Position numbers and translations under genes: made by a program
Shown here: in pieces, positions 9,525 through 48,189 of the stretch
Position numbering within the stretch: position 1 is the first letter of the stretch
How the letters are laid out: each line of letters begins with the position of its first letter
The notes under the pieces: generated by a model
The model's database searches: none
What the model saw: only the letters and a program-made list of their open reading frames with translations
What the model was told of the DNA's origin: nothing
Assembly: GCA_000091205.1 (NCBI GenBank)
Contig: AP006499.2
Source: Cyanidioschyzon merolae
Taxonomy: Eukaryota
Length of the DNA: 64,000 bases
Reading direction: 5' to 3' (one strand)

Positions 9525-11453
9525 ATGAACGTACATGAATGGACAAAGAAGTACGCACACTGTCATAGGAGACCGTCACGCAGTGAACTACTCAATATCC
9601 ATCTAGTATTAGAACGCGAATGCGTATCCCAGGAGGCAGGCGGCATCGTTTCGCTCGAGGAGACCTCGTTCAGGGGAAACGGTAGCGCCGCACAGTGGTA
9701 CGCAAAGAGGGGCAAACCGCTGTTTGTAAAACAGGTACTCTCGAGCACTCCAACAACATTAGCCCTTGCGGATTTTCAATCGTAGAGTTACGACGAAATC
9801 GCCAAATGAGCAAGATCGTTCAGCACCACTCCATTAACTGAAGCACGCTTCATGGTGCCTGCTTCTCAAAGTCTTCTCGCTGCCCGTATGACACTGCCGC
9901 TTTCCAACACTCGAAAGCAGCCAGGGAGTGCGTGGCTCAGATCGACATTGACAAGCACTTCGTGCCAGCGTATTCTGCCTGGTTCAATACAAACCAATGT
10001 ATCTTCTCTGTTGTCATACGCCATTTTGATGTTCTAAGACGCATGGACGAATCGTTTGCAACCGTGGCGTCGCTCGTCATCAAGTCGTTGTGTACCTTTG
10101 CCAGCCGTGAACTACGGTGCTGCCCCTGTGCTCTTGCGGGGCAGCAATCGAAAAGATTTGCCTCGGTCAGTGGATATATGCTGGTGACGGCGACGGTGAC
10201 GAGCTTGTAGTTAAGGCGTAGTGGATATACAAAGACGAACGGAGAGCTTCGGTGATGCTGCCAAACTAGTACTTCTGAATTCCGCGAAGAAATCAGGTAT
10301 AGAGCATGTCGATTACATGCGTGTCGCCCCGGCACGTAGAGGAAGCAGGTTACTATTGCACTAGTCTCCGCGAGCAACAAGGAAGCGTTCTCACGACCTC
10401 GCGCAGAGCGCTGGCAGAGCTTGATGAAGATTTCTCGCTTAGAGGGAGGAAGTGGGAAGGGTTTTTAAAGAATGATAGAGGGCAACAGAGTATCGAGCTG
10501 CAAAGCCTTTGTCAAAAATTGGCATGTGTCGCGCGACGAGACTCATGTTCAGGTGTTCAGGATAGATGAAGAGCAAGACTTTATGATCAGTGTGGATCCC
10601 GGATTCAACAACTTAATCGCTGTAGCTGTCCCTCTACATCCAGAGGACAGAGCTGAAAATCTGAACGGCGTGAAGTTGTACCAGATCAACTTTTCCAGGC
10701 CTGGGTACCAACAAGAGTCGGGTATGGCAGACTCAAGGCGGCATACCAACAACTTGAATGATTGTGTCAGGACTGGTCTCGACGCTGTGTGCACCGTGTC
10801 GTGCAGCGTGCGCTGCTTTGCACGCTTCATTTAGAGAGTACATCAGCGTAAAAGTGGCTCGTGCGGACGATCTTTGGCTGGAGTATGCGACTTCGTGCTA
10901 TGACCGCCAATGGATTGGGGTTTACTGAGGCAGGGAACGTGCGTCCGCCAACGTCTTCAATGAGTTGGACAAAGAAATGACCGATACGTATTATCGTTTG
11001 GCGTCAGCCTATCACGCAAGACGTGCTGAGGCGCGAAAGGAGTGCATCTCTGATCCTTTGATGAGCGCGTTCAACGAGTGCACGAATCGATGCTGCACGA
11101 CTCGCGTCGATGAGTTCAGGACTGCATTCATGCATCAGGGGCGCGGCCGCACATTGGAGTAGGCAGAGAAGGGGCGCGTGAAGAAGAGACGGACGCACGA
11201 GGTGGTATGCGGTAAGCTGATCGAACGTCAGGTGACGAGGGAATCAAAATTGAGAGGCTTCCCATGTCGTACTTCCACCGGCAAGCATGCGCGCAGGCAC
11301 TCTCTGCACCAAAGCTTGAAAGCCTCGATCAACCTGCGAAATTGTTCCGTGCTTCCGGAGCGCCCAGCGCCTTTGTGTCGAGCAGATAATCGAGGGAATC
11401 GTTTATTGGTGAGGTCGGGGATTTTGCTGACACACACGGAATACTTTCGATAA
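9525..11453 (+). mobile_element. degenerate Fanzor/TnpB-like (IS200/IS605 OrfB, RuvC-fold) element, copy D. It is pseudogenised and split over 5 or more frames
   Basis: ORF 10472..10834 contains VQVFRIDEEQDFMISVDPGFNNLIAVAVP, the RuvC-I G-I-D-P-G block with Asp intact. ORF 11178..11453 contains KHARRHSLHQSLKASINLRNCSVLPERPAPLCRADNRGNRLL. That is a degenerate RuvC-III DFNAAINIRRCAxL...ANF block in which the Asp is replaced by Ser. ORFs 9525.., 9932.., 10306.. and 10965.. cover the N-terminal and linker regions in other frames. Confidence 0.6.
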
Positions 11454-23335: not shown

Positions 23336-24691
23336 CACGGAACTGCTCGATCTAATCATGTCTTGCGAATTTTTCCAAACTTGTATCGATATGCAGCCTC
23401 GACTTTCCAAGTGCAGCGATACTGGTTTACGGGTTCATTTGTCGTTTTTAGGATGATCGGTCGTGGTTTCGGTGTGGTGCATGCGACTATCTGGCGCTGG
23501 ATCTCGCTAGGTGACTGGAATCAAGATCATTGGCGGCATTCGCGACTAAGGGCTCGTAACATAACCGACATGATCACAGCGTTCAGACGTGCAAGCCTCC
23601 AGGATTCTCCTTTTATTACGTGTTGTATACGCGAATCATAATTTTCATTCATGTTTCCGATCTTTCTGTTTCAAGGCAAGTTGGTTGTGCAGCAATGCGC
23701 TCCGCTGGATTGGCGATGAAGGGATCTCGACGTCGTCTCATTACGACTTGTAGAATATGTTATTTCAATCGCTCACTGGACTTGCAAACTCAAATAAGCG
23801 ATCCCTGGTTGAAAGACAAACACCCTAATCTTCGCGCCCGTCGACGAGACGGTATGCGGCACCAGCACCCTGATACCTCGCACGGGACAGGCTGCCAGAG
23901 GCTCCCGAGTCGCCTGTTCGCAAGCGCAGAAAAGCGCCCTGGACGCTGGGTTCAGTCGTCGCAGCGACCGCTGCCGGTGTAGCGCTCGTCACCGCTTTGC
24001 ATGGAGTGAGCGTGCATCGCTCAATATACTTCGACTTGTCCTTCGAGCTGCGCTTTCCTTCGGGTAGTTGCTTCATCGTGGACAACATCGCGCTCCACGT
24101 ACCGTCTACCGAAAGGAACAGCGTACGCTTCCATGTAAAACAGGCGGCGTGCTCCCCGAGAGGATCGCCCAGCACAAGCCCGTGATCGCTGCGTGCGACA
24201 CTGGGCTCGGAAATGGAGCACGGCATCCAAGGCAGCCTTCTTCATTCGTCAAGGGCATGTACTGAGCGACGAGGCAAGCGTGCGCACGCCACTGGGTGCT
24301 TCTCCAGTGAGAACGTACGGCGTACGTGTGAGAGCACCTGATCACAGTTTCGTGTTACCGCTGCGAAGGACGCCACGAGTCTCTATGAAGACAAAATGAA
24401 AATCGCGAGCGAAGCAACGTTTCCAATTCCAGTCTGTGCATGGAATGCGTTGTCAACAGCGCGCAGCGACGGCTTCGGGGCCTGAACGCTGCCATCACCA
24501 TCGGTCGACTGCTGGCATCGAAGCAGGCGGGACACCAGAGACCAGCGTATATCAACATCTGATGCAAGAACTAGGAACAAGGACCCGTCGCAGAGGAGGC
24601 CCGCAAAGGCCGGTGTTGATGACGGGCGGAAGCGACGCTGACGTTCGATAGTACGTCCGAGTTGGAGGACCCGTTCCATTTTATTTTGCAA
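23336..24691. repeat. R-family dispersed repeat, copy R2 (1356 bp). It is about 99% identical to 6243..7598 and in the same orientation
   Basis: See R1. The boundaries are where identity with the R1 flanks is lost (gaaatggag|cacggaactgctcg on the left and ccgttccattttattttgc|aaggggtacagc on the right). Confidence 0.9.
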
Positions 24692-25374
24692 GGGGTACAG
24701 CGCCGTCTGCTGAATACCATTGAAGACTTGAGCGAGCGTCACGCGATACTGTCGTGTGCAGTGGAAGACACTGAAAGCGCGCGGCATTGGACGAGCACCA
24801 CTTGCCTCCCACGGAACGCGTACGATTATTGCCGGCGATCGATGCTCCCTTCCATGTGTCTCGCTGGAGAAGCCAGAAGCGCGCAGAATCTACAGACCGT
24901 GGCAGTGCTGCATGCGGAGTACCCGTGGATAGCCACCTGCGTCACACGGTATCTTTGTACGACTGGAGCAGCGCGTTTTCTGGAGAACAGATCCGGTGCA
25001 ATGGTCTGGATGGTAAGCGATCTCGCAAGACCGAATCGTTACCGTATTGCAGACTCGGCCACAGGTATACGACGCTGCAAAGAACAACCTTTTTTCCGAG
25101 TTATCTGAATGCACATTGCACCAAGTTCGTACTCAAACAACGAGTCCTCTACACAAGATACTCGAAAGCAGCTCGCACATTAAACGTGAATGCTGAACCT
25201 CCGCGACTCGACATACTTGCAGTGCCTCCGAAACTACGGATACGCTCTCTGCATCATGTGCGAACTACCTCGGGAACGTTACGCACAGCAAACGTGTGCG
25301 CTGATTGACCAGCATTCGACATGCTTGCCGTGCTTCCAACACAAACTGTCGCGACACACGACGCTGCCCGGATA

Positions 25375-26823
25375 TCATAACCATGGTTCACCTGTGGCAA
25401 TGCGCACGACTGAGGATCGAAGCGGTGCCACCCTTTCAATGAACTGCATTCCTAGACCGCGAAAACTGCTTGCTAAAGTGGATCCGAGTCCTCGTGTTCG
25501 GGTCGGAAAGGCAAAAACGCGACGCAACGCAGAAAGCGTCACTAACATCGCCGTGTTCAGAGGCAACCTCTCTCGAGTATAGACAGCCAAGACGCTTGGA
25601 TCGCCGATATCCCGTCCCGTTTGCCATGCTTGTTTCAAAACACGAGCAAGCGTCTGCGCATCCGCAAGCCCCAGGTTTACGCCCTGTCCAGCGAGCGGAT
25701 GAACGACATGGGCGGCGTCACCCACTAAGACGACTCGATTGGCGTCGTATCCAGTAGCGCTCCCAAAGTGGAGTGGAAACGACCAACGATCTCTGCCATC
25801 CGTTCGACTCGGGATCAGTCGTTGAAAACTGGGCACTACGGGGAAGCTTCGCCTATCGATCGGGTACGAGCTCTGGCTCAAAAAGCGACGATACGGAGCG
25901 TGCTGGCCTCCATCGACATTCACTCGATGTAGCGCTGCATGCGTTGCATCGAGAAACTGCGAGGCGGAGGCCTCAGTCTCCAGCCAATCCGCTTCGGATT
26001 CATTCGTGGACCAGACGATATTGCTGTACATGCCATGCTGTCCCATGGGGAGAATTGCCAGCGGGCCTCTCGGGAGAAAACGTTGAATCGCCACCAGGTT
26101 GGGTTCGCGATTCTCTACAATAGCGACCACTGCCCGCTGATGGTATGAACGCCCTATCCAGGTTAGTTCGGTCTGGTGGCGGACTCTGGAGCGAGCGCCA
26201 TCAGCTGCAATCACCAGGGAAGCGGCCACAGCGAATGGTGGATGTTCCGCTTCAGAGAGATGCAACTGTGCCCAGGGATGGGATGCTGGCCAGGTCAGGG
26301 TATCGAAGCAGGCTCTGGACCAGCATATGGAACCGGAGACTGAACTGGTTCCATCTCGACCGCTGGCGTTGCCGGTGGGCTCCTTCTCGCCAGCGACTCG
26401 CTCTAGACACCGGTGAAGCGTCTCGAGCAGTGCGGTTTCTTCGACGATATATCCCAGCGCTGGTGGCTCGGTGGAGAGGCGCCCGACGCAATCCGCGGCA
26501 TCAAAAGTGATTTTCTCCTGCGCTGAGCGCCCATACGCGAACAGTGTTGGAAACGCGGTGATGGCCCCCTGCGGTAGGCGTTCCCATACGCCAAGCGACG
26601 CGAGAAACTTCTGCGAAGCCGGTGTGATCGCCACAGTGCGTAGTCCAGCTGCTGTGTCATTGATAGGTTGCCAAGCCGGTGCACGTCGCGGATCAACGAG
26701 AAGAATGCGCGCTCCTGGCTCGATGAGGTGCCGGTGCAACGCGAGTGCTAGCGTTGAGCCAACGACACCGGCCCCTACAATCGCCACGTCAGCCGAAGCG
26801 GTCGGTGAACCTGTTTCGGGCAT
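25375..26823 (-). CDS. FAD-dependent monooxygenase of the UbiH/UbiF/Coq6 family (ubiquinone biosynthesis hydroxylase-like)
   Basis: 500-aa ORF whose track start is TTG. The first ATG gives MPETGSPTASADVAIVGAGVVGSTLALAL (GxGxxG FAD-binding fingerprint 12 residues in). It also has ARILLVDP, a DG..S..R region, and the C-terminal VVLVGDAAHVVHPLAGQGVNLGLADAQTLA (GD...HP..GQG motif). Confidence 0.75.
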   Translation of the reverse strand: MPETGSPTASADVAIVGAGVVGSTLALALHRHLIEPGARILLVDPRRAPAWQPINDTAAGLRTVAITPASQKFLASLGVWERLPQGAITAFPTLFAYGRSAQEKITFDAADCVGRLSTEPPALGYIVEETALLETLHRCLERVAGEKEPTGNASGRDGTSSVSGSICWSRACFDTLTWPASHPWAQLHLSEAEHPPFAVAASLVIAADGARSRVRHQTELTWIGRSYHQRAVVAIVENREPNLVAIQRFLPRGPLAILPMGQHGMYSNIVWSTNESEADWLETEASASQFLDATHAALHRVNVDGGQHAPYRRFLSQSSYPIDRRSFPVVPSFQRLIPSRTDGRDRWSFPLHFGSATGYDANRVVLVGDAAHVVHPLAGQGVNLGLADAQTLARVLKQAWQTGRDIGDPSVLAVYTRERLPLNTAMLVTLSALRRVFAFPTRTRGLGSTLASSFRGLGMQFIERVAPLRSSVVRIATGEPWL

Positions 26824-27177
26824 GACCGCTTCTCGGAACGTAACCGGCGACACACGGCGAAACCAGGAGGCTTTCAAACTGGCCTAGAGAAGAACGCCTT
26901 CATACGCAGGTGCCCGATGAAAAAAGATTCGCACGCCCACACCCCTGGAAACAAACGTCTTTTAAAAGAAAAAAGTTGCTGCCAGTGGTACAGCAGTGGC
27001 AAACACGCCCTATACAAGAAGTCACCAACTGACTTGCAGACGCCTCCCAGTTTTTTTTCGACCGGCCGCCTACTACTGGTTTCAACTTTTTCTCATATAA
27101 TGCCACTTTGAGAGGTTGTCCAATAAAGTTCCCTCTTGTCGACTCTGAAGGTTTTTTCTCCATCGCCGCACATCTCC

Positions 27178-29287
27178 TTATACATTGATCGCGGCATGAA
27201 AGCCACGGTTCACAAACTCCATACGTTTCCTGCCATCTTTGGTTGTACTTGTCAATGCAAGTAGTCCACGAACTTTCGCCATCCTTTCCATATGCTCTTC
27301 CGTCAGCGGACCGTATTTTGCTATTTCCTCAGGGCTCCGCTGACACTTTTCCATCTCCACTCCCTGAAGTGTACAACCCAGCTAATGGTGTGTATAGGAC
27401 GTTCGGAACTCATCCATCGGTATTGTAACAAAACGCCGTGCACACTCTTTGAATGTTCTTGTCGTTGGAGCTGGCGTAGTCCCTTTTTGGGTCATCTAGC
27501 GCCCTGCTCCGTACGCCACTACCAGCCTCTGATTTTCATCCTCCTTCAAGGCGCTCAACGCATTGAAAAAATTCGCGAACGCCCGCTGCTTCCCGCATTA
27601 CATATTCATACGCAAACGAACCCACCGAGGCTTTGTATACTCCTCCCACAGCGCATCCCAATGGGCAACACGAACTTCCATGAATTTCCGAAAAGCTTCA
27701 AAGTCCGCTCTTCGGCTCGCTCAAAGCTTCCAGGTGATCCTTCATTCCTGCATTCCGTGTCTCGATTCTCTTCCTCGCATTCATGATTCCCGATTCTCGA
27801 TAGTATCTCGCTCACGAGAACCTCAAAAGACGCATATCTTTCTGACGTAAGTTGCCGTTGTTAGCAACTTCTGCACGCTTGGGTGCAGCGATGGTTACGA
27901 TATTCGTATTCCCAGGGTTCGTGCCAATGACAAAATCGTTATCCTCTACATCCTGCGTGGCAAGATACGCCTCCTTCTCATCTCCACGCTTCGTCACGGC
28001 CGCAGCCGAGGGCGGAACTCGACGATCTGCCTCCAAACGCCGATAGTGAACACACTTGGATACTTCACCGGTTTCGATCATCCTAGTGAATACCTTTTGT
28101 TTGCTCGTATTGAGAAGTTTGAAATTGAGGATATTCTTCCAGTACGTCTCACGGTTTTCGCCGGAGAATTCCCGCCTGCTGGCATTGACCTCCGGACTGG
28201 TCTCCCTCATGATGCCGTGAAGGATTCTGGAGTCGATAGTCACGAAATGTGGCTTGATGTTCCACAATGGAACTACGTTGAAACGCTTCCCCATTAGGGC
28301 AGCCTTCCGTCTCTTCCATTCTCCATTTCTCTCCTCTCTCAGCTTCATCTCTGCCTTGCGTTCGAGTTCTCGGTCCAAAAACACGAAATAGCGTAACATG
28401 AGGCGATAGTATCTTTCCTTATCTTTTTTCAACGCTGATATCTTTTCTGCTGGATTTGCCAGCCCCAGTACCGCACGATGCTCTTTAATAGCCGCACGGA
28501 TGACGGAATCTTTATTCTTTCTCCTGTGTGACGCCATCTCTCCGACGAATTCGGTCTCATCTTTATGTTGGCAATCGTTCGTGATGCCATCGATACTGGC
28601 CCATATCCCCTGGCAAGAGAGACCCCGGTGCAGCGCAAAGATGGAGCGTATCAGAAAGCATTCGAGGTTCAAGGTCATAGGGTCCCTCAGGTTCGTGAGG
28701 TACTTCATCGCCCCATGGCAGTAAATATTCCCGTCACCGCTGTATCGAGTACCCTCGCAGCGGCATTCCGCGAAGTTTTCCTGGAGGACATGCACTCGCT
28801 CATTTCTCCAAGACGTTTCCGCTGTGCCAACCATCAGGTGGCGAATAACGGTCTTGTCGAAAAATTCCACCCGCACCTCGACCGTTTTGATGTCCGTCAC
28901 GTCTTCGTTCATCTTCCTCACCAAATGCATTATTCTTGCAAAAGCCTTGCAATCGCTCATGCAGTAGTGCGCGATACGGTCTCTGAGATCCTCCCGCAAA
29001 TTTTGCTTCTACGGATTCATGATATGCTTGAGACGACAGGCTTTCGGTACTATTTCGACGTAGTGTCGTCTTTCCTCGAGCCATTGGCGTCGGGCCGCCT
29101 GCCTTAGCTTCTTCGTCTCATCCTGTTCCTCTCTGCTCTGCACTGTTTTTTCTTTGTTTCCGCCTGCCGGCGGTAATAGCCCTCTAGGATCCTCCACTTC
29201 CATGTCCAAACTTCCCTTTTTCATTTTTGAAAACGAATGCACTTTGAACTCCCCTGCTATAAACCCCGAAAACTCACTTGAATACAC
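27178..29287 (-). mobile_element. degenerate Fanzor/TnpB-like element, copy A. It has the longest surviving ORF (395 aa) but mutated catalytic sites
   Basis: ORF 27812..28999 ends ...[42 protein letters not shown]. That is the RuvC-I block with Asp replaced by Asn (GTNPG instead of G-I-D-P-G). ORF 27178..27360, MAKVRGLLALTSTTKDGRKRMEFVNRGFHAAINV, is the RuvC-III block with Asp replaced by Gly and an immediate stop. Frame breaks occur at about 29009/28999, 27812 and 27606-27360. The N-terminal ~350 aa aligns with the N-terminal fragments of copies B and C. Confidence 0.65.
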
Positions 29288-29699
29288 TCACTTGAGGGTT
29301 GAAACAAAACTGAAATAAAAGACTGTATTTTTCGACGACTTCAACATCGTCGCAGCTTGTACTTTAGAACGAGAAGTCAACGAATATTCAGGATCGCGTT
29401 TCGCTTCAACGGCGAGATGCGCGTCGTGTCCCATGTATACCAGGTATGGAGGTGCGTCTATCGACCGCGCTACATAGAACAAATAACAGAGACTAACGAT
29501 CAAGTATCAACGATATAGAGATTTATTCCCCCTCGATGATAAATGTGAAGAGAGGAAAAAGCTTTCAGTATTGTCGAAGGCCTACCCTCGAGGCGGAAGG
29601 TCCCGCGAGCCGGACAAGTCTGCCAAGCTTGCGCTCTGTGCGACTCTGCAGTTGCGGGTACTTTAGCGAGACCTAAGCTGAAACTCGTACGCAACGCAA

Positions 29700-29930
29700 T
29701 TCTTTCTGGTGCGAGGGGCAGCTAAGCTCCGTCTGGGCGTCGCCCTGGTCGCAGTGGTCTCCAAGTATATCGCTTCGCGCTGCCATAGGCAGCACGTCTA
29801 TCTGCGCAGCTTGCTTGCCCCCAGAATCATGATGCATCCCGATTAGGTATTGCGTGAACCACACCTCGAGCAGACGCCCTCCGTAGTACGGCAAAGCCGT
29901 TGTATCCCCATGTTGCATCTGCTCCAATGG
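29700..29930. repeat. ~230-bp segment related to 48190..48400 (about 75% identity, same orientation)
   Basis: ccgtctgggcgtcgccctggtcg...gtgaaccacacctcgagcagacgccctccgtagtacggcaaagccgt here, versus ggcgtctgggcatcgccctgacc...catgaaccacacctcgagctggcgccttccgtagtatggcgaaaccgc at 48.2-48.4 kb. Minus-strand ORFs 29673..29927 and 48032..48424 share PYYGGRLLEVWF / PYYGRRQLEVWF and QAAQIDV / QAAQIDL. It lies about 400 bp beyond the 5' end of Fanzor-like copy A. Confidence 0.7.
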
Positions 29931-30743
29931 TTTCGTCGTTATTGTGGGTGCTTAAAGCAGACACTCGGCGTTCCTTAGAACTCAAGGAACTACCAGCATA
30001 TCCAAAATGAAATATAAGTTATGGAACTTGAAGGTACGTTGCATCATGCTGGAAGCTTTCCCCACAGCCATGATCCATCCCGCAATCTGGGCCCCATGCG
30101 CAATGAAAGCGTTTTGCCATCAAAAAACGCGACCCGTACCGAACGTTCACGACATTTTTAAACGAATGCACAACTAGCTGCGAAGGCGCAATTCTTGTAT
30201 GCACTTGCTGTCCAGCGCAGCGACAGTTTGGAGCTACCAAGCGCTTGGACCTGGAAGCGTCTTCCGCATCTTTGCGATTTCGAGTGCACGGCAGAGCGGT
30301 GAAGGAAAAGCGTCTAGAACGAAGCTGCGTGTGAAACGCAAGCGTCCCAGCGTACGATGGTACCAGCGAGCGGCTCAGGAGGTCACTTTCAGGCCAAGGC
30401 GGTGTGATAGCTATCGACTCGAAAACGCTCGCAACTGTTCGAGACCCAGCGCCCTTTAAACTCGTGGTCGAAGCACTGGTGCTTTCTGCGTTTTCTGCTG
30501 TGCTGCCACTTGGCTGCTGTTCTCGTCAGTTAACTGGACCAGTTCGCCAAAGTACCAGGTTGTGGCACTGTGCTTGCAGCTGGGAGCGCGGATCGAATCG
30601 TCTGAACCACGTCACCAGCGGCACGCTCTTGTCCGTCTTGTTTATCTCGCGCGTCGTTGCGAGAGCTCGCGGAGTTGCATGGCACACGCTTTGATAGAGG
30701 TCTGGACTGGGGCGAGCGCATCCCCGCCGAGCATCTTCAACTA

Positions 30744-32345
30744 ATGGAGTCGCTGGAAGAAAACGACTCCGATTTCGAGAATGACGGGCGGGATCGGATG
30801 CCGTCTCGGCCAGAGCTGGCGAGCTGGCAGCCTCCAGCCCTTGAAACGGTCGCTGTTCTGGCTCGCCAGTTTGACACGGCGTTCCAGAGCGCGAATGCGT
30901 CAGCGCTCGAAGCTTGCGAACGAGCGCTGGTGGAGCGGGTCCCTCTGCAGTTGCTGCAACAGACCTGGTTGGAAAAGATATTTGATCGGCGAGCGGATGC
31001 CAGTCATGAGTGGACGTACGCGGACATACGCTTCGCGTTGCATTTAGCGTCCGCTGCAGGGCACCTGGAGCAGCGCATGCTGCGCACGCTTTTCGTAAGC
31101 GTGTTGGCAGAGACCGCCTCGGGAGAGGCGCCAGCGTCCGTGGGTCGCACAAGCGTCACAACCAACATCCCCAGACGGGTAGAAACACGAGCATTTGCGG
31201 CACTGTACCGGCATGTTGCGGAGGCGCTTTCAAAACCCAGTATGGACACAGAGGGAAGCTGGCTGACGCTGGTGCAACTGATTCCACATATCGATGGAGT
31301 GTCCGGGTCCGTGACATCTATGCATGTGGATGCGCTGGCGCTCTGCGTCGCACACGATGCCTGGAATCAGGCACTCGAGGTAGTCCTCGCGAGGATTACC
31401 CCTTTCTGGTACAAACCGCCATCTCCATTCATGGTATCCCTGAGCGACCTGGAGCGCTTTCTCTTCAGCGCGGCAACGACTCACTTCAAAACTGGCAACT
31501 ATCGAGCATCTTGGCGGTTACTGCATGAATTCTTGGCACTGCAGTGCACGCGACCAATGTCGAGGCGCAACGAGGCGGCAGACCCGGATACCAAACATCC
31601 ATCTCAACGGATCGCCCCTCTGGATACCGCAGTGACACTCTGCCGATGGCATGAACCGGTGATGCTAGACTCGAGTCACATTTGCGAAACCACGGCAGCA
31701 ATGCGTATTCGAGCTGCACAGCGGTACGTATGTTTGGAGCTTATTGTCTACGGCACCACGGAAGAGGCACTGCAATCGAGCCTGCCTATGGGCTCTGTGG
31801 AACGTTCGCCATCAACGACAGGGCGCTTTCTAGCACGATATCGGGCGCTTGCGCAGACCTTCGACGCGTGTAGTGCGGCCGGGTGCATCGCTCCCTTCGA
31901 TGCGTTCGTGCACCTGCATTTGGACTCTTTTCGAGCTGACACTCACGAGGAATGGATTCTGCAGACTCGCCGTGCCCTTGCACGTGTTCTCATGCTCAGC
32001 ACTGCGAGCGTCTACAAAACACTACCACTGCGAACGCTCAGTGAGCGCACCGGCTTGTCGCGTTCGGAGATCGCGCAAGTCATTCAGGATCTGCGTTCAG
32101 GGCGGTGCTGGAGCCAGAGCGCAGGTGCTTTATGGACTCGCTGGTTCACAACGCTCGTTACACTGGACGCGAATGGCGAGCGGGTTTCGTTCAGGCGGCA
32201 CGCTGATACAAGGACCGAGTCTGCTGGAGCTGTAGCGGTACCAGGGTCTTGCGGCATCTACCTGTCCCGTGCGATGTTGGTGGATGCTGGAGTGCATGCA
32301 GCGTGTGCAGCAGATTTCTCCCGCAAATGCGCTTGGTTTCCCTGA
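30744..32345 (+). CDS. hypothetical protein with a C-terminal PCI/winged-helix-like segment
   Basis: 562-aa ORF whose track start is TTG. First ATG at 30744. Largely helical-looking and non-repetitive. Near the C-terminus, ASVYKTLPLRTLSERTGLSRSEIAQVIQDLRSGRC resembles the winged-helix part of PCI domains (CSN/eIF3/lid subunits). Assignment is tentative. Confidence 0.35.
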   Translation: MESLEENDSDFENDGRDRMPSRPELASWQPPALETVAVLARQFDTAFQSANASALEACERALVERVPLQLLQQTWLEKIFDRRADASHEWTYADIRFALHLASAAGHLEQRMLRTLFVSVLAETASGEAPASVGRTSVTTNIPRRVETRAFAALYRHVAEALSKPSMDTEGSWLTLVQLIPHIDGVSGSVTSMHVDALALCVAHDAWNQALEVVLARITPFWYKPPSPFMVSLSDLERFLFSAATTHFKTGNYRASWRLLHEFLALQCTRPMSRRNEAADPDTKHPSQRIAPLDTAVTLCRWHEPVMLDSSHICETTAAMRIRAAQRYVCLELIVYGTTEEALQSSLPMGSVERSPSTTGRFLARYRALAQTFDACSAAGCIAPFDAFVHLHLDSFRADTHEEWILQTRRALARVLMLSTASVYKTLPLRTLSERTGLSRSEIAQVIQDLRSGRCWSQSAGALWTRWFTTLVTLDANGERVSFRRHADTRTESAGAVAVPGSCGIYLSRAMLVDAGVHAACAADFSRKCAWFP

Positions 32346-32652
32346 GTATCATCGTCGTCGTCATCCTCATGATGACAATCGGAGGCTGGAATGCCTCGGT
32401 CTATACCAAAACCTAATTCTATGACGTTCACCGTTTTCGAACGCCGTCGTCCACTGTTACGACACGACGAGAGTAGCTGCTCAGAAGCTCTCTGAAAAGC
32501 GGATCGATGCACAGGAAGTTGCAACGCACACGAATCCTGCACTGTGCGTTGCAGCGCATCGCGGAGACCCTTCATGACCTAAAAAGGATGATGAGCCCCG
32601 CGTCCAAGCGAATGTTCAGCTCGTGTACCGGTATTGCGCTATCTAGGGTCCG

Positions 32653-33687
32653 CTATCCGAACAATCGCCGTCGCTTGCGCGCACTGCGGGTATACGGCGC
32701 AAGCCTCCACTCATCATCAGCATCTTGTTGCTCGAGCGTTCCGAGACGTATGCGGAACAGTCCTAAATCGAAACGGGGACCCAGTTCGATGAGTGCTTGG
32801 TGCTGCTGGTGACCCTGGATTCGACCCGCACTCGATGAAGCGGTCGCAGTTCCCGCTTCTTCGTCGTCTGATGAATCATCCGCAGCGGCGGTGCGCCTCC
32901 TCTCAACAATGTAATGTCGGAAAGATAGAATACCATCATATCCCTTATCAATGAATGCTACAATACGCTTCGAGTCTGGCTTGGGAACGGGAAACAGAAA
33001 TCGAAGCATGTTCTTCACCCGCATGCCCAGTCTACTCTGAAAGCTGCCCTCGAAGATCACATGGGGATACGCTTCGCTGAGTGGCGGCAGCGCAGCGTCC
33101 GGGCTGTTTTGGTGTTCGTGTCGAAGCATCTCCGCTACATCGTGTCGCATGACGACATTGGAGAGTGCGAAGTACGCCGTCGGACCCAGCGGCAAATGAC
33201 ATACGATGAGCGCATCGGGTTCGCCGCGCGTCTCGTGCAGCAACACCAAGTCCGTGAGCTGTTGCGCTCTGCCGAGCTCGATCAGGTCCTTTAGGATGAG
33301 ATTGCCGCGGTTCAGCCGCTGAGCGTTCGGAAAGAGGAACCGGACCTCTTTCGCAAACTGGCATAAGCGACTCGAGGGGTTCCTCGAGGTCGTGATCACG
33401 ATCTTCGGATCCGCAACGCCCGCTGTGGCGTACTCGTCATCCAGCATCAACCGTGTTGTTGCTAGCATTCGTATCGGATGACGAAGTGCCTCCTCGGTTA
33501 TCTGGACTTTCTCGTCTGCGTCGCTCGTGTCTCGCCGAGCGGACGGCGTCGAGCTCGCACCACCAGGGCGAGCAAGTCCTGGGGGTCCGCGCTGGCGGCT
33601 CGTCTCCGCCCCTGCTGCCGCTATTTCGAGCGCTCTTCTGTAAAGGTACTCTCGACGCAAACGAGCTTGCCTCTTTAGTGATATCAT
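32653..33687 (-). CDS. IMP4: U3 snoRNP protein IMP4 (Brix-domain ribosome biogenesis factor)
   Basis: The track start is GTG. The first ATG gives MISLKRQARLRREYLYRRALE (IMP4 N-terminal signature). The Brix domain follows: DPKIVITTSRNPSSRLCQFAKEVRFLFPNAQRLNRG, LVLLHETRGEPDALIVCHLPLGPTAYFALSNVVMRHD, RLGMRVKNMLRFLFPVPKPDSKRIVAF, FRHY, GPRFDLGLFRIRLGTLEQ, and the C-terminal WRLAPYTRSARKRRRLFG. This is colinear with human IMP4. Confidence 0.85.
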   Translation of the reverse strand: MISLKRQARLRREYLYRRALEIAAAGAETSRQRGPPGLARPGGASSTPSARRDTSDADEKVQITEEALRHPIRMLATTRLMLDDEYATAGVADPKIVITTSRNPSSRLCQFAKEVRFLFPNAQRLNRGNLILKDLIELGRAQQLTDLVLLHETRGEPDALIVCHLPLGPTAYFALSNVVMRHDVAEMLRHEHQNSPDAALPPLSEAYPHVIFEGSFQSRLGMRVKNMLRFLFPVPKPDSKRIVAFIDKGYDGILSFRHYIVERRRTAAADDSSDDEEAGTATASSSAGRIQGHQQHQALIELGPRFDLGLFRIRLGTLEQQDADDEWRLAPYTRSARKRRRLFG

Positions 33688-34150
33688 TGAAGTGTTCGGT
33701 TCGTAGTTGACTGAGGTAAGATGCAGCACGCAGTGTGTTAGCGCGATGCGCTGCACAAACGCCCGTGACGCGCCCTAATACCACGCCGCTGGACTCAGAA
33801 GCGGCTGCAACGGTTCTTTTCCGTGCAGATCTCGAGTGTCTCTTTGCGGGTGGATTGTTTTTCGCTGCCTGTACAAGCGCTGGTGACAAGCGTTCCTTCA
33901 AGCGTCCTTATCGAGTTAAAGAAGCGGTTCGCAGGAGAGAAGTTGTGCAGCGACAGCGCAACGCAGTTGGAGCGCTTTACATGAGACATGATTGTATCTA
34001 AATGGAACAACAGAAACAAAAAATCCCTTGCCCCCAAGGCGTTGCCGTTCCTCCGCACTCTGTTCCTGCACGAGCGTAAGGTACCGCGTCCCAGCAGCAC
34101 GAAAACAACTGCAGCAGCTACTGGTGCCGCCACAACTTGTTGTTGCGTCC

Positions 34151-36103
34151 ATGGCAAACAGCCTCGGCCTACCAGCAGTACCGCTGGAGCCGCGTCTGGT
34201 GCCGGATGCTGCGACTTGGCTCTCGGAGCGCTTCTCCAATGACGATGAAGAGGAGGTGACGCGGCTCGAGGAAGCGGTGTGTCTGCAGCTGGCGGCGCTG
34301 CGAGCGTTGCGGGCACCCCTGCCCCAGGGCATTGCTGTGTACCGGTGTCGAGCGCCCGGTTCACCGTCACGAAGTGCTGACGCTTCCTCAAGTCGTGGAA
34401 CTCGCAGCGTGCGTAGAACTGTGCAGCTTCGCCAGCGGACGCGAAGCGCTTACCGGCAGGCCAGCGGCACTACAGCAGCGAACACTGGCTTGCGCACCAA
34501 CCTCGACACGAGTATTGGTGCCGTTGATGAACACATCAACGACGAGTTGATCGATAGTCAAGAACTCGAAGAAGCAAGCACCGGTGAAACAGAGCCGCGG
34601 CCGGCGCACCGAGCGACGACAGTTGCGCATCGAGTGTTTATTCCACCGCGTTACGTCCTCCCGCATCATGCGCTGATATACGAACACACGGACTGGTATC
34701 GAGAACGAGTGCGTCTGGCCATGGAAACAAACAGTGGCCAGTACGCCTCCGCTGAGGCAAGCTCGGGTCGCGCGCCTGCTCCGCGGGCGCTCACGGTGTT
34801 CCCGGCACCTGCTGGTCGCGACCGCGAAACAGACTCATCGCCCAGGAGACCACGCGAGCGTCGGTTTCGTACACGCTTTTCCGGCCAACGTGAGGGTATC
34901 CTCGAAGATGCACTTGCAACCATACTTTTCCGCGATGAACGCACGGGCGCGGGAACCCCTCCCGCTGCAGAGATGCCTCTGGATCGGCAGCTAGATCGAG
35001 GACCTGGCCTGCCTGACAGTGCCGAGAGACTGCCGGCTCCTTTGCTTGGCTATCGCGAAGAGGTTCGTTCTCATCAGCGACGCGCATATGCGCAGCGTGA
35101 AGCGTTCGGCAGCCCGCCAACGTCCATGGTCCTCAGTGACTGGCTAGAGAGCCGTCGTCGCGACGTCGCGGACCCAGGCAGTGTATCACCAGCCGACGCA
35201 ATGTCGCTGTGGAGCGCACCCCGCGCACCTCAGAGGCACATACCAGGCCGTGGCGACGCAGCGCTCGGCGTCTATCGAGAGCCACGCACGGGGCAGCGGA
35301 GCCTCCAGAGACGCTCGACAGAGGTGTTGTCCACGTCTGTGGATACGGGTCGCATTCGAGGCCCGATAACAGCGAACGAGTCGGCGCCAGAGCTTTTACA
35401 TTCACCGCCTTTCCGAGCTGGATCGATCGGTGACGATTCCTTTGATGCCGGGAGCCTGCGGCTGACTGCCCGAGGACCGAGTCGAGCGCGCCTCTCGGGG
35501 CATGTGGCATCACGCACTCGTGGACTCCCCGTAGATCACATTTCGCCAGCAGATGCGTCTCTGCCCTTAGACGAATCGTTACAGACAGATGAAACGAGCG
35601 GGCGCGTTCATGGACGCGCTGCGCTTCATCGCATGAGGCGTAGCGGTCGAGAGCTCGACGTATCCTCAGTCGCGGATACGTTCCATAGCACATCGGCAGG
35701 CAGCGCGAGCCACCACGCTTGGACGAGGGCGCCCATGGACACTGCACGTTCGACAAGCACAGCTTTTGCATCGCCGTTAACCCTGGAGCACAGAGATTCC
35801 GCAGGTAGCTCGCCGGGTGACTTTGTTGTGAACGATTGGATGTCTGCAGGGGATCGTTCCTCGCGCACCGACCAGAGCCGAGGCGGTTTCCGGACGGGAA
35901 CCGGGTCAGCCGGGGATACCACCACGATAGAAGCGCTTGGTGGTCGACGGCATCGCGGACCCAGGGATCTGGTTGTGCGCATAGAAGAAACGCTGCGCAC
36001 GCGAGCCTGGGAACGATCCACCTCTGCGGATGCATCAGCGCGAGCTTCGGGTACTGCCCGCGCTCAGGTTCGCAATGAACGGCGGCATCTGGATTCATCG
36101 TAA
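34151..36103 (+). CDS. possible low-complexity (S/R/A/P-rich) protein. It may be a spurious GC-rich ORF
   Basis: 703-aa ORF whose track start is TTG (first ATG at 34151). It is divergent from IMP4. A 400-aa ORF on the opposite strand (35133..36335) overlaps it and is equally low-complexity. Neither has a recognisable domain. Confidence 0.25.
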   Translation: MANSLGLPAVPLEPRLVPDAATWLSERFSNDDEEEVTRLEEAVCLQLAALRALRAPLPQGIAVYRCRAPGSPSRSADASSSRGTRSVRRTVQLRQRTRSAYRQASGTTAANTGLRTNLDTSIGAVDEHINDELIDSQELEEASTGETEPRPAHRATTVAHRVFIPPRYVLPHHALIYEHTDWYRERVRLAMETNSGQYASAEASSGRAPAPRALTVFPAPAGRDRETDSSPRRPRERRFRTRFSGQREGILEDALATILFRDERTGAGTPPAAEMPLDRQLDRGPGLPDSAERLPAPLLGYREEVRSHQRRAYAQREAFGSPPTSMVLSDWLESRRRDVADPGSVSPADAMSLWSAPRAPQRHIPGRGDAALGVYREPRTGQRSLQRRSTEVLSTSVDTGRIRGPITANESAPELLHSPPFRAGSIGDDSFDAGSLRLTARGPSRARLSGHVASRTRGLPVDHISPADASLPLDESLQTDETSGRVHGRAALHRMRRSGRELDVSSVADTFHSTSAGSASHHAWTRAPMDTARSTSTAFASPLTLEHRDSAGSSPGDFVVNDWMSAGDRSSRTDQSRGGFRTGTGSAGDTTTIEALGGRRHRGPRDLVVRIEETLRTRAWERSTSADASARASGTARAQVRNERRHLDSS

Positions 36104-36399
36104 AATGAATGATGCATCGTGGTAGTCGACGAGCTGACGCGTGAGAAAGACACTGGGAAGCTGTTTTGTAGGCGCAGGGCGACCCCGGTGGCGGCGCTCC
36201 GAGCGTCCGCGGCAGGCACGATGAATACGATGCACCGGTGCCCTTCAATCGATGTTGCCTGTAGATTTTAAAGAATGGCAATTTTAGGATTGGTAATGCG
36301 TAGCAGCATCTCGAAGGGAATGGTGGTGCTTTCATGGTTCACCGACGGCAACCGGGAATCCCTTGGATTCTCGTTACACCGGTGTCAGAATAAAATGCA

Positions 36400-37300
36400 A
36401 CGGATCGTTCAAATTGGGCGTACACTGTACGCCCTGGGTATCGTTCTAGTGTCATCGACACAGGCCTGTGGAGACTTTTTCATTTCTGAGACCGCTTCCT
36501 TCATCGCCCTCTTGTCTACGGCTCGAAATGAGGCGGGCTCTCCGGTCCTTCCTGCTCGGTTGTCGGCAATGGAAAGATGTTGAAGGCAGCGTTTCAAGTC
36601 CAGATTTCGCAGATTCGGACTGCTGCCAACGCAGTTCATGCAGAGGCGGAAGTTGCGCTCTACGCTTCGCTTGCCATTTTCACCTGATTGGTAGGGAGCC
36701 ATGGTATGCGCTTCGCAACGGTGACAGTAAAATGTACTCTTGTGTTCTGGTATGCCCATTATACGTTCTGCGTCGAGGAGCCTCCTGTGGTGCGTGAAGA
36801 CTTGCTCCATAGCTCGGTACATGACAGGTACCGAGGACTCGCATCGATGCCAGCTTCCGTTTCCGTACCGAGTCCTAGACGCTTTGATGACGGTAATCGT
36901 CTGGATGATCTCTTCGACAAGCTCTCCGTCTGCTGCACACGCAAGCGGATGCTGTACAATTGGATAGAGGATTTGTTCAACGCGACATTGCCCATTAGAG
37001 AACAAGTACCCGGAAGAAAATCCAGGCTGGAGAAACATTCGAGAAAATTTGAACCGTGTACACTCACCTCATGCAAAGCGGTGATGCGCTCTGCACAGGA
37101 AGCGATCGCTGTGATGCCTGCATTCCTAGTCCAAGGCCCTTTTCCATGGAAAAGGAGGCAATGGGTGCTTCTGAAAGCATTTCCCGTTGGATATTTCATG
37201 CTGCTGTTGCGCTCAGCTTCGTCGATAGCGATAAATAGAAAAAGGAGGGATTGGTCTTTCGGATAGAATCGACGTTGATTGGACGTGACAAGTTTCGTCA
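36400..37300. repeat. R-family repeat, diverged copy R3 (about 75% identity to the central part of R1, inverted orientation)
   Basis: Plus-strand ORF 36688..37266 (...REQVPGRKSRLEKHSRKFEPCTLTSCKAVMRSA...) aligns with minus-strand R1 ORF 6732..7133 (...MKQLPEGKRRSKDKSKYIERCTLTPCKAVTSAT...). The reverse complement of 37090-37140 aligns with R1 7038-7100 (ccatg.aaaa ... gatcgct). The boundaries are approximate. Confidence 0.6.
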
Positions 37301-37489
37301 ACTTCCGGCATGAGCTTGTGAGCAAGCCGATAAAGAACGACGTGGCATAATAATCTATGTAAATGCATTGTTCATGAAACAAAGAAAATGTCTCACGACC
37401 ATGAAGGTATATATACATACTGACGAGCAGACGCCTCCGAATCTTCTTTGATCGGCGGCTTGCCTTAGGTATCAGTTTCTCCCCATACA

Positions 37490-38771
37490 CTTCGAGACTG
37501 AGAAGCTGCCCTACAAAGTTTGCTCGCGTCAGCTCATCGGGTCTTGTCTCCAGAACCGCACATCGTATGATATTGATGGCGGCGTTGAAGTCTTTGTTCG
37601 CGAACTCCATGCGTTTGTTGCCGCTGTTTGAACTCATCAATGCAAGGGTTGCTAGAACCCGCGTCCTGTGTGCCACCTGCTGCTCTTTCAGCAATCCGTG
37701 CTTTTCCATCGCCGAAGCCCTCCGCTGTGTTCTCCCTATCTCGACCATCTGGTGTGTATAACCCAGCTCATGCCTTAGATTTTTCATTTCTCAAAATGAA
37801 TGGGCTTCTTTATGCCCGTAGCTAAGGACCTTCCCCGAGGAAGAAGGACATGTTCAAGAAAAACGACATATGCCTCGGCGTGCCATCGTGTGCTGAAAGC
37901 TTCGGCAATTCGCCCCGTGGAGCGATCATTGCGTTTCAGGACAGAATACACTCCTTCAATGGGGCTGAATCACGGAGCGTATGGAGGAATGGAAGGCAGC
38001 TCTACTCCCAGATAGTATCGGCAAAATCTGGAACTCAAGGGGAATGGTAAAATACTACGTTGTTCAATAGAAGGACGTTGCCGGACTTGAGGAAAAAATG
38101 TTCAACAATTCGACAAAGTGTTCGCTGCTATTGAATGAGCCTTCTCAACGAGCGAATATGAGGACGCCAAATGAATCCACTCCAGCTAGAACAGATGATG
38201 ATGTCCTCGTTCTCCTCGAGCTCGATCTTGTATACAATGAGCTCTATCTCCGAGAAAATAAACATATACGATTGGACCGTTTCGTCTGAAGCAGTTCTCA
38301 TCGGCTGAAAAACAAACCGACGTGCCTGTGCTTCACACGAATCGAGAGGTCCCATGCATGTTGTCGCTGCGATCTCGGTGGAAGATAGCCGTTTTCGTGA
38401 ACCAGGACTGGTTTTGTATGAATGTATCCCGAGTTTCCAGGATCACACGAGCAAGCTGGTGAGAAACAGAGACACCCGCAATAACTACTATTATCGCGTC
38501 GCTTTCCTTAAAGCAATCAAGTGGTCGTTTTTCTAACATGGCCGACAACAAAGTTTTTACCAGTACCTGTTTTTGGAGCAGAGCGCGCATACCTGTTTCT
38601 TTCAGTGTTCTCGACCATCCTAGTATAGTAGTATGACTGACCTGAAGAAGGAATGCAGCCCTCGTTACCATGATCAGTAAATAATATGTATCGTGCATGC
38701 ATTTCGTCTACGATCGAATCGATACAAAGCATAGAAATGTCGATCTCGTACGATACACTGCGAAGAGGCAT
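37490..38771 (-). mobile_element. degenerate Fanzor/TnpB-like element, copy B
   Basis: ORF 36759..37787 begins MKNLRHELGYTHQMVEIGRTQRRASAMEKHGLLKEQQVAHRTRVLATLALMSSNSGNKRMEFANKDFNAAINIIRCAVLETRPDELTRANFVGQLLSLEVYGEKLIPKASRRSKK. That is an intact RuvC-III D-x-N-A-A-x-N-I block plus the family C-terminal tail. The rest of that ORF is read-through into the inverted R3 repeat. Upstream fragments are ORF 38128..38355 (...IELIVYKIELEENEDIIICSSWSGF, the RuvC-I position with the Asp lost), 38333..38698 and 38517..38771 (N-terminal region). There is a stop two codons upstream of the 37787 ATG. Confidence 0.6.
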
Positions 38772-39018
38772 TTGATGACACGCAGCAGGCGCGAAACAAA
38801 ACTGACGTGAAAGACTATAACAATATGCATATAATTGCTACAATCTGCCTTTTTTGAGACAATCGCTCCTGAACGTCCCTGTGCGCTTACCAGCGAGCGT
38901 CAGCAGGCGCGCGCCTTGTACCCAGATCCGCCGTGGGGCGCCTGTCGGAGGTCGCCGCTACGCGACCGTATCTGCGAGCCACCACGCTGACCTGCACACT
39001 GCTGCATGCGTAGACGGT

Positions 39019-47528: not shown

Positions 47529-48189
47529 GACCGCCAAGCTCAAGCCCTAAAACGAAACTCTTGTTCAAGAGTCTCTCGCAAAGCGAGCACTAATCACGCT
47601 GCAAACCACCAACACACATGCACGATCTATGTCTTTGTCAACTGAACGAAGCTCCATGCCAGGGCGAGCCACGTGTACGAGGACTGCGAGCGCGACGCCG
47701 CACGTCCGTCCGCCGCTCGAACACGACATGCGGCACGCGTGCGAAACGACGCCTGGCACCGGCTGCAAACACGCGATCGCCACGCGCGGCACACGCTGGG
47801 AATCGCTTCCGAGAGCAGTGCATGGTGATTATGGGCGTTTGTTACCATGAAGTTCAGAAAGGTGGAGATTCGTGATTCTAGCTCTGCGATTCGTCGAACA
47901 GTGCCCAGTGCGCAGCGCGCACGATGGGGCAACGCCGGCTGTCATCAGCGCCTCGAAGCAATTGAACAGCAGCTCGAAGGCACGACGAGTAGAAACTGAC
48001 CATTTACTAGGAACGAAGGGAGAGTGCTTCGTTATCCATGCGCGGCAAGGGATGAGAGGTGGTAGATTTTTGCGTGAATAGGAAACTTTACTTGGTGGGC
48101 GTAAGCTCCCGCGATCCGGGCTCGTACGCGGTGCGTACCCGCAGTGGCGAGTGCGTTGGCGACGCCCGAGCAGTTCGTCCGCAACCCAG

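Follow-up and report, generated by a model that had tools for sequence, protein, structure and literature searches.

The element copy that lies just upstream of the COQ6 gene in the 64-kb stretch of Cyanidioschyzon merolae DNA analysed here (the window; 64,000 nucleotides), referred to below as copy A, is very probably an old, immobile and non-functional copy of CMe-1A, left by the neutral decay of a known Fanzor1 transposon. On its sequence, it is a member of an element family of C. merolae that has been known since 2013. The ancestral element would have carried a single-exon Fanzor1 protein of 734 amino acids with a D-E-D active site; after insertion, copy A would have drifted neutrally, losing its start codon, acquiring five stops in frame together with one 8-bp deletion and two small insertions, and having two of its three catalytic residues replaced (D431N and D672G). 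Copy A is presumably without expression, and a gene in this state would not be expected to support any RNA-guided DNA cleavage.

The published 3169-bp CMe-1A consensus (Bao & Jurka 2013, supplementary file 2, PMC3627910) can be aligned with copy A over its whole length, at 83.1% identity and with 517 substitutions and 11 indel events. Copy A occupies positions 26956..30122 on the minus strand, as do all features described below, window positions 30122-26956 matching consensus positions 1-3169, and is larger than the span 27178-29287 originally given for it. Homology between copy A and about 80 other copies breaks off at the same two ends, and the transposon context is retained, since both the 905-bp 5' non-coding part and the 3' end are present. 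By coordinate mapping to the consensus, a TE-N2_CMe-like non-coding module, the first 635 bp of the consensus, lies at 29482..30122; the 5' 635 bp of CMe-1A have been reported to equal TE-N2_CMe (Bao & Jurka 2013, PMC3627910). What is left of the Fanzor1 coding sequence, 734 codons in the consensus (906-3110), was aligned codon by codon and lies at 27010..29209. The family was described as comprising about 150 copies of about 3 kb, each about 80% identical to the consensus and without terminal inverted repeats, some of them still intact (Bao & Jurka 2013, Mobile DNA 4:12, PMC3627910). In agreement with this description, no terminal inverted repeats were found between the two ends of copy A; a search for target-site duplications at copy A also found none.

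The host was checked through the adjoining COQ6 protein, which is 100% identical to XP_005538027.1 of C. merolae 10D, and 233 related stretches were found in metagenomes. Other fragments of the CMe-1A family occur elsewhere in the 64-kb window, in which no tRNA genes were found. No protein matching the copy A reading frame was found in NCBI or UniRef, and none is annotated in the reference proteome. The GC content of copy A is 49.5%, against 52.3% for the consensus, and the substitution spectrum is biased from GC to AT (174 versus 113 transitions). Repeat-induced point mutation of the fungal type was considered as a source of this bias and rejected: the bias is moderate, transversions are numerous (230, beside 287 transitions), and the organism is a red alga.

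Measured against the uninterrupted consensus, the coding sequence of copy A has lost its start codon, carries five in-frame stops and three frameshifting indels, and shows the two catalytic replacements, and every break can be traced to a point mutation or a small indel. The original ATG now reads TTG (29207-29209), while the original TAG stop is kept (27010-27012). The first in-frame stop, TAC>TAG at codon 67 (29009..29011), is common to all alleles examined, and the second, AGA>TGA at codon 466 (27812..27814), closes a long open stretch; downstream of this TGA the same frame runs on as family sequence, ARYYRESGIMNARK. The initial annotation had read these two sites as frame breaks at 29009/28999 and, with a one-base offset, at 27812/27815, but both are in-frame stops, and the 69-aa ORF starting with GTG (27606..27815) that had been taken for the next frame is spurious. 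Three further stops follow: TAC>TAA at codon 540 (27598..27600), which is polymorphic, being present in the window and in contig L084 but replaced by TAT in contigs L001 and L083; TGG>TAG at codon 574 (27496..27498), missing only in L083, where a foreign tract replaces the region; and GAG>TAG at codon 612 (27382..27384).

The true changes of frame are three in number. An 8-bp deletion (consensus 2396-2403; junction at 27719..27720) is common to all alleles, a 1-bp insertion at 27059 affects the C-terminal tail, and a 2-bp insertion at 27181..27184, private to the window's strain, throws the tail out of frame and creates a stop after INV. The earlier account of which breaks are frameshifts was partly wrong. 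A stop does come directly after the RuvC-III block, where the frame carrying MEFVNRGFHAAINV ends at 27178, but the C-terminal tail is not lost with it, as had been supposed: it is present and reads on in another frame (IRRCAAMEKKPSESTRGNFIGQPLKV and onward) because of the insertion at 27181-27184, and in the three other alleles sampled, which are without this insertion, INVRRCAAMEK and the residues beyond it are in frame. The lesions are unevenly spread: seven of the eight fall within the final third of the coding sequence, and the 1188-nt open block is free of them.

The catalytic triad, which is D-E-D in the family consensus and in most paralogues, reads N-E-G in copy A. Alignment to the consensus shows the RuvC-I Asp replaced through GAC>AAC (D431N, 27917..27919) and the RuvC-III Asp replaced through GAC>GGC (D672G, 27202..27204; in the window, L001, L083 and L084), while the RuvC-II Glu is retained as GAG (E603, 27409..27411); two codons after D672G there is a further replacement, N674H (27196-27198). 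The corresponding motifs are GTNPG and NRGFHAAINV in copy A and GADPG and NRDFNA in the other copies, so that both Asp replacements, already suspected from the motifs themselves, are private to copy A; the Asn at position 431 is present in every one of the 11 alleles covering the site. Across 65 diverse relatives the D, E and D columns are invariant or nearly so, the RuvC-I column being invariant, and in a profile-to-PDB alignment they fall on SpuFz1 D383, E541 and D606, a numbering checked by residue count with an MBP offset of 394. These three residues are the Mg2+ ligands and catalytic residues of SpuFz1 (PMC10432273, PMC11423790). The Asn and Gly of copy A therefore stand at catalytic columns of a characterised Fanzor (D383 and D606), and not at non-catalytic ones.

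The feature that had drawn attention to copy A is the stop-free stretch of 395 codons at 27812..28999, which spans the N-terminal two-thirds of the protein, the RuvC-I strand included, and ends in RFS and a stop past the GTNPG motif. An ORF lister that allows bacterial starts returns it as the uninterrupted 395-aa frame described initially, from 28999 to 27812; counted from the first ATG, at 28960, it is 382 aa long. If eight lesions fall at random, a single pre-chosen copy has 395 or more open codons in a row with P = 0.026, so that for such a copy the uneven spread of lesions tells against neutral decay; under the same model, one or more of about 150 copies would have such a run with a probability of about 0.97. 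Open runs of at least 395 aa are found in 14 of 35 distinct full-length paralogues, the median being 309 aa. With all 517 substitutions unconstrained, the block should contain 6.7 stops, and it contains none. The force of this figure is reduced, since much of the divergence had arisen before insertion: a downstream dN of 0.076 limits the neutral divergence after insertion to less than half of the total, and on a rough rescaling one would expect about 1.5 to 2.8 stops. The long open stretch is a chance survivor, the longest gap between lesions, and has not been kept by selection; a working protein would not be expected from it.

A different account of the same stretch is that copy A is a domesticated, catalytically dead derivative, from which the N-terminal fragment of 382 or 395 aa is expressed in a role independent of nuclease activity, such as omega RNA or DNA binding or dominant-negative regulation of intact CMe-1 copies. 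We consider this very unlikely, even though the open stretch is the longest segment of copy A and the lesions cluster outside it, and although gene callers predict the block as a protein in several metagenomes. The fragment would be without most of the RuvC domain and the whole target nucleic-acid-binding (TNB) region, the upstream 66 codons are cut off from it by a stop, equally long open runs occur in 40% of the decayed paralogues, and the reference proteome holds no annotated protein for it. In its most specific form, in which the 382-aa fragment would be expressed in C. merolae as a repressor, encoded by host or element, that sequesters, for example, omega RNA or the ends of the few intact CMe-1A copies, the proposal is likewise highly improbable; if it were true, the contrast between no stops in 1.19 kb and seven lesions in the following 0.8 kb would not be due to chance.

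Substitution patterns also weigh against a selected function for the block. Relative to the consensus, dN/dS is 0.64 in the block and 0.21 in the fragmented part downstream, so that the block is the less conserved of the two. Among four alleles the block has accumulated 21 nonsynonymous and two synonymous changes, and about 21 of its 382 amino-acid sites are variable, against 9 of 482 in COQ6 (counted from alignment summaries), an amino-acid polymorphism about three times that of COQ6. Between two strains the block taken alone has 11 nonsynonymous changes and one synonymous change, which is compatible with neutrality (P = 0.23), and its nonsynonymous rate is 1.18%, as compared with 0.49% in four neighbouring ORFs, two with and two without a Pfam match (a 2.4-fold difference); the synonymous rate of these four ORFs is 0.60%. 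The neighbouring ORFs have a pN/pS of 0.80 at 0.85% divergence, and their comparison with the block has little power (Fisher P = 0.24). The two-strain dN/dS of the block is thus inseparable from that of its neighbours, and reliance must therefore be placed on the comparison of rates, on the additional alleles and on the segregating lesions. Within the limited power available at this divergence, the dN/dS test on the 395-aa block gives no sign of constraint.

The additional alleles come from the same locus in other strains. All alleles other than the window's are from metagenome assemblies, and chimeric assembly could explain some of the differences, among them the L083 tract (27375-27577), which may otherwise be a product of ectopic gene conversion. 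Ten of the 11 other alleles keep the block open, as the domestication proposal would have it, but in L083 a 1-bp deletion at 28174 breaks it and leaves a 293-aa product (P0336). L001 has a TGA of its own at 27610-12, the foreign tract of L083 replaces the stops at 27496 and 27382, and the rest of the coding sequence is broken in all alleles. New disabling lesions thus differ from allele to allele, the deletion within the block among them, and decay is continuing in population alleles. Of the two outcomes that the initial annotation had entertained, neutral decay is upheld by the lesions, the segregating alleles and the 21 to 2 ratio of changes; domestication finds no such backing in a gene with five stops, three frameshifting indels, no start codon and an allele frameshifted in the block itself.

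It is extremely unlikely that copy A is a still-functional gene whose breaks are repaired by small introns across 27360-27812, by stop-codon readthrough or by programmed frameshifting. The segments in their different frames do together cover the whole family protein in order, as such repair would require. The intron rescue raised initially is nevertheless to be rejected: the consensus ORF consists of one exon, and a simple mutation explains each of the breaks; intact relatives, too, are single uninterrupted ORFs. C. merolae has very few introns. Eight separate recoding events would be needed, the lesions to be recoded differ between strains, and the repaired product would still be without two catalytic Asp residues.

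That the stops and frameshifts are sequencing or assembly errors in the window and that the copy is really intact is scarcely credible: no sequence other than the window's has the 2-bp insertion at 27181-84, but the stops at 29009, 27812, 27496 and 27382, the 8-bp deletion and D431N recur in the independent contigs L001, L083 and L084, from three samples, except where the L083 tract has replaced the stops at 27496 and 27382, D672G is found in all three contigs (its site is covered in L083 because that contig ends only at about 27121), and the insertion at 27059, which lies beyond the end of the L083 contig, recurs in the other two, L001 and L084.

Neutral decay of a CMe-1A copy being by far the preferred reading, the locus upstream of COQ6 should be labelled not as a gene but as the remnant of a CMe-1A (Fanzor1) transposon, or as a pseudogene. 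The result has little import beyond correct annotation, apart from providing a residue-level record of how a Fanzor1 copy decays, through D>N and D>G replacements, stops and small indels, with lesions segregating among natural strains. Candidates for active red-algal Fanzors are to be sought not in copy A but among intact P0001-like relatives with D-E-D.

The assignment of the family to Fanzor1 required a broad alignment. Nothing useful came from Pfam and PDB searches, whether the query was an ORF piece, a frame-repaired copy A or a narrow-family profile, and Fanzor1 structures were reached only by a profile built from 65 distant relatives (PpFz1, E = 9e-19; SpuFz1, 8e-12; GtFz1, 6e-6); the TnpB-type Pfam model PF07282 matches the CMe-1 family marginally. 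An AlphaFold2 model was made of P0001, one of the intact relatives that keep D-E-D, rather than of copy A (pLDDT 81.5, pTM 0.79; an earlier model on a shallow 46-sequence alignment, with pLDDT 36.7, was discarded). In a Foldseek search of the PDB with this model the top seven matches are all Fanzor1, the best being SpuFz1 (E = 3e-16, TM 0.71 on the target). The predicted fold of P0001 thus agrees with the WED/REC/RuvC/TNB architecture of Fanzor1. Profile matches and predicted fold together confirm that the CMe-1 family is to be grouped with the Fanzor1 nucleases of solved structure, and with the published family description they bear out the Fanzor/TnpB-type RuvC identity first proposed from the motifs. 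By homology and fold, the intact ancestor was probably an omega-RNA-guided RuvC endonuclease. A search for Rfam families gave no match, and when the last 115 nt at the 3' end of 20 copies are folded together, only a weak consensus structure (-6 kcal/mol) results, in which there is hardly any covariation.

Among known systems, the bacterial TnpB proteins (IS200/IS605, IS607) and the Cas12 nucleases share the RuvC core fold with CMe-1 and give weaker but specific Foldseek matches (8H1J, Cas12f, Cas12o, Cas-phi), but they are far more distant, CMe-1 being eukaryotic and having the large N-terminal domains of Fanzor1. The Fanzor1 proteins SpuFz1 (PDB 8GKH, 9CEU-9CEZ) and those of P. parasitica and G. 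theta are homologous to the family by profile (E values given above) and by fold, although sequence identity is only about 14% and the TNB region of the CMe-1 family, unlike that of these proteins, shows no obvious zinc ribbon of the CxxC...CxxC type. Inverted repeats of 30 nt are present in SpuFz1 elements (PMC10432273), whereas none flank the CMe-1 element. Fanzor1 proteins tolerate Asn as the third catalytic residue, or even benefit from it (GtFz1 N658; SpuFz1 D606N), a pattern from which copy A departs in having Gly at the third position and Asn at the first. The closest likeness is to CMe-1A itself as described by Bao & Jurka (2013), with which copy A shares about 905 bp of 5' non-coding sequence, a single 734-codon Fanzor1 ORF, a 3' tail of about 60 bp, the absence of terminal inverted repeats, the host and a divergence near the reported identity of about 80%; there is no categorical difference between the two, this copy being a disabled one.

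Copy A is a full-length, dead copy of the already described CMe-1A Fanzor1 transposon, and it is in neutral decay. The published family has about 150 members that each share about 80% identity with a consensus of roughly 3 kb (3169 bp), which codes in a single exon for a 734-aa Fanzor1; some intact copies persist, the element is without terminal inverted repeats (TIRs), its 5' 635 bp are common to TE-N2_CMe, and target-site duplications were left undetermined in that study (Bao and Jurka 2013, PMC3627910). When the consensus in the supplementary file of that paper is aligned to copy A, positions 1-3169 correspond end to end to window 30122-26956, with 83.1% identity, 517 substitutions and 11 indel events, and the boundaries are the points at which homology to about 80 other copies stops. 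TIRs were looked for at the ends of copy A and none was found. The adjoining gene is COQ6 (25378-26823, minus strand), whose protein matches C. merolae 10D XP_005538027.1 at 100% identity; the window therefore belongs to C. merolae, either strain 10D or one that this gene does not distinguish from it. The GC content of copy A is 49.5%, against 52.3% for the consensus, with a substitution spectrum biased from GC to AT, and this low value is consistent with a drop in GC seen at this place in the window.

The non-coding 3' end of the element (26956-27012) contains, past the ORF stop codon, a conserved CACTACTGTACAC motif flanked by GC-rich arms, which a 5-bp deletion has shortened in copy A, and then a T-rich run. 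RNAalifold support for a structure in this interval is weak, as is the consensus structure computed from 20 copies over their 3'-terminal 115 nt, which bears on a putative omega RNA; the window contains no match to Rfam families and no tRNA genes. The motif region may serve as an omega RNA end or as a transposition signal. In many copies, among them copy A (window 26950-26955) and copies in the metagenome stretches L003-L082 (3' flanks), TTTGTT or a close variant directly follows the last consensus base (...GAAAGGCG/TTTGTT), and this shared hexamer may reflect a true element end about 6 nt further out or a target-site preference.

The initial annotation was essentially right about the reading frame, motifs and catalytic columns of copy A: the 395-aa ORF (27812..28999, minus strand; hereafter the block) appears in the ORF listing, and the strings GTNPG and NRGFHAAINV are real in the three-frame translation. 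The frame breaks are also present, but their placement and type required correction. Shorter minus-strand ORFs are listed at 29009..29287, 27606..27815 and 27178..27360. In the three-frame minus-strand translation, the first frame extends from about 29287 to about 27700 across two in-frame stops, MNP*KQN (29009-29011) and RFS*ARYYRESGIMNARK (27812-27814), the second of which had been read as a one-base offset. The second frame carries the family sequence onward (ADFEAFRKFMEV ... NRGFHAAINV*) with three further in-frame stops inside, and the 69-aa GTG-started ORF at 27606..27815, formerly taken as the next frame, is spurious. The C-terminal tail (IRRCAAMEKKPSESTRGNFIGQPLKV...), once thought lost, is back in the first frame after INV*, so that it has been shifted in frame and not deleted.

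Alignment to the consensus, whose residue and codon numbering is used here, resolves these breaks into individual minus-strand lesions: loss of the start codon (ATG>TTG, 29207-29209); stops at codons 67 (TAC>TAG, 29009-29011), 466 (AGA>TGA, 27812-27814), 540 (TAC>TAA, 27598-27600), 574 (TGG>TAG, 27496-27498) and 612 (GAG>TAG, 27382-27384); and frameshifts from an 8-bp deletion (27719/27720), a 2-bp insertion (27181-27184) and a 1-bp insertion (27059). Of the three catalytic residues, two are replaced, D431N (GAC>AAC, 27917-27919) and D672G (GAC>GGC, 27202-27204), and E603 (27409-27411) is retained; N674H (27196-27198) lies close to the second replacement. Both aspartate replacements are private to copy A, since the remaining copies have GADPG in the first motif and NRDFNA, or in a few cases NRNFNA or NREFNA, in the other.

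The length of the block had left room for a domesticated, catalytically dead derivative as well as for decay. Random placement of eight lesions produces such an open run with P = 0.026 in one pre-chosen copy; across about 150 copies, the probability that one or more would carry it is about 0.97. When 35 distinct full-length paralogues are compared (97% clusters, a set biased toward better-scoring copies), the median length of their longest open runs is 309 aa, 14 of them have a run of at least 395 aa, and 2 look intact. Were every substitution post-insertional, the block should contain 6.7 stops; since a downstream dN of 0.076 limits the divergence accumulated after insertion to less than half of the total, rough scaling lowers this expectation to about 1.5 to 2.8, and the absence of stops is therefore unremarkable. 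Measured against the consensus, the block has a dN/dS of 0.64, compared with 0.75 for the part upstream and 0.21 for the part downstream, so that in protein terms it is the “preserved” block that is less conserved. The 395-aa ORF has no matching protein in NCBI or UniRef.

Syntenic metagenome contigs supply alleles of the locus, namely L001 (14.3 kb, 99.15% identical to the window) and two more, L083 and L084. All of these contigs share the older lesions and the two aspartate replacements with the window, apart from two stops replaced in a tract of L083, and newer lesions are also found: a TGA private to L001 (27610-27612), the TAA at 27598, confined to the window and L084 among the four alleles compared, the 2-bp insertion, confined to the window (the other alleles continue in frame as INVRRCAAMEK...), and a 1-bp deletion at 28174 in L083 that disrupts the block and yields the 293-aa product P0336. 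Across the four DNA alleles the block has accumulated 21 nonsynonymous and 2 synonymous changes. Between window and L001 its nonsynonymous rate is 1.18%, against 0.49% of nonsynonymous and 0.60% of synonymous sites in four neighbouring ORFs (COQ6-like, Brix and two without a Pfam match), and in twelve protein alleles, as counted from alignment summaries, about 21 of 382 sites vary in the block vs 9 of 482 in COQ6. The neighbouring ORFs have 23 nonsynonymous and 10 synonymous changes (window 24681-38959 vs L001), a pN/pS of 0.80 at shallow divergence, so that the ratio test alone has little power (Fisher P = 0.24); this value is unusually high for conserved genes and may stem from very recent divergence or metagenome assembly errors. 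Neutral decay is supported by the lesions relative to the consensus, the 21 to 2 count and the new lesions among alleles; domestication is left unsupported by that same count, the block dN/dS and the L083 frameshift. Rescue by splicing is likewise unsupported, the consensus being single-exon and the breaks being stops and small indels.

Differences between strains are grouped in tracts and reach 28 per kb at 27-28 kb, the 3' third of copy A, vs 4-7 per kb elsewhere. The L083 tract of about 200 bp (window 27375-27577, within L083 4860-5110 = window 27350-27600) is 86% identical to the window and 93% identical to the paralogues L028 and L075, and restores two codons that the other alleles have as stops; ectopic gene conversion among decayed copies would explain the tract, as would chimerism in the metagenome assembly.

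Other repeats are present in the window. At 48082-48600 (minus strand), 519 bp match the first 541 bp of the consensus at 70.7% without a Fanzor ORF, and this is probably a solo element of the type of TE-N2_CMe, the 5' module that also exists as a family of its own, with about 70 copies (Bao and Jurka, PMC3627910). Copy B (10361-11399, plus strand) is also a Fanzor1-like remnant, far more diverged, with profile E values of 5e-18 and 9e-26 and about 35% amino-acid identity to CMe-1 proteins. It keeps VDPG and VDEFRT, but its RuvC-III has degenerated to HQSLKAS and stops interrupt it internally; blastn of the CMe-1A consensus does not recover it, and it may belong to another, older Fanzor family, where a single one has been reported from this genome. 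A 342-aa ORF (36759-37787, minus strand), called as a gene in L001, overlaps copy C (37419-37772). This ORF begins within the 3' portion of a CMe-1A-like element, so that about 120 residues at its N-terminus correspond to the RuvC-III block and tail of Fanzor (NKDFNAAINIIRCAVLETRP...), and it has the appearance of a transposon fragment read through by chance. A dispersed repeat family occurs at 6766-7440, 23859-24533 and ~36545-37210, with about 63% mutual identity (via L001 1751-2416).

Single-sequence searches of Pfam and PDB sequences gave no match, and a search of 5.8 billion proteins gave 46 relatives, almost exclusively from JGI metagenomes. The protein P0001 (752 aa; GADPG, VDEFRTS, NRDFNAAINI) is an intact relative, and P0002 (382 aa) is an orthologue of the block, 97% identical. 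In several relatives, tandem units of about 25 aa (VQDNDLVVDA.KHEE.KEA...) occur in 2 to 5 copies just upstream of the RuvC-I strand (L002 ~7100-7440, P0001 residues ~375-470), with one unit each in copy A (window ~27925-27998) and the consensus; this segment, of low AlphaFold confidence, is an expandable linker. The AlphaFold2 model of P0001 rose from pLDDT 36.7 with a shallow alignment to pLDDT 81.5 (pTM 0.79) with a 65-sequence alignment, and its best seven PDB matches in Foldseek are all Fanzor1 structures, SpuFz1 first (E = 3e-16, target TM 0.71), with Cas12 and TnpB ranking after them.

An exhaustive profile search gave 1502 representatives at E <= 0.001, and among 65 aligned diverse full-length relatives (P0001 numbering) D484, G486 and E656 are invariant and R724, D725, N727, A729 and N731 nearly so. 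The 65-sequence profile matches the Fz1 structures of Parasitella parasitica (E = 9.4e-19), Spizellomyces punctatus (E = 8.4e-12) and Guillardia theta (E = 6.4e-6). In the profile alignment the family D, E and D fall on residues 777, 935 and 1000 of chain 8gkh_P, which minus the MBP offset of 394 are SpuFz1 D383, E541 and D606, the Mg2+ ligands of Saito et al. (PMC10432273) and the catalytic residues of Xu et al. (PMC11423790). The Asn and Gly of copy A thus stand on catalytic columns, and the alternative that they occupy non-catalytic ones fails against the Fanzor1 structures. Fanzor1 tolerates Asn at the third catalytic position, as in GtFz1 N658 and SpuFz1 D606N (Xu et al., PMC11423790); copy A differs from both, with Gly occupying the third catalytic position and Asn the first.
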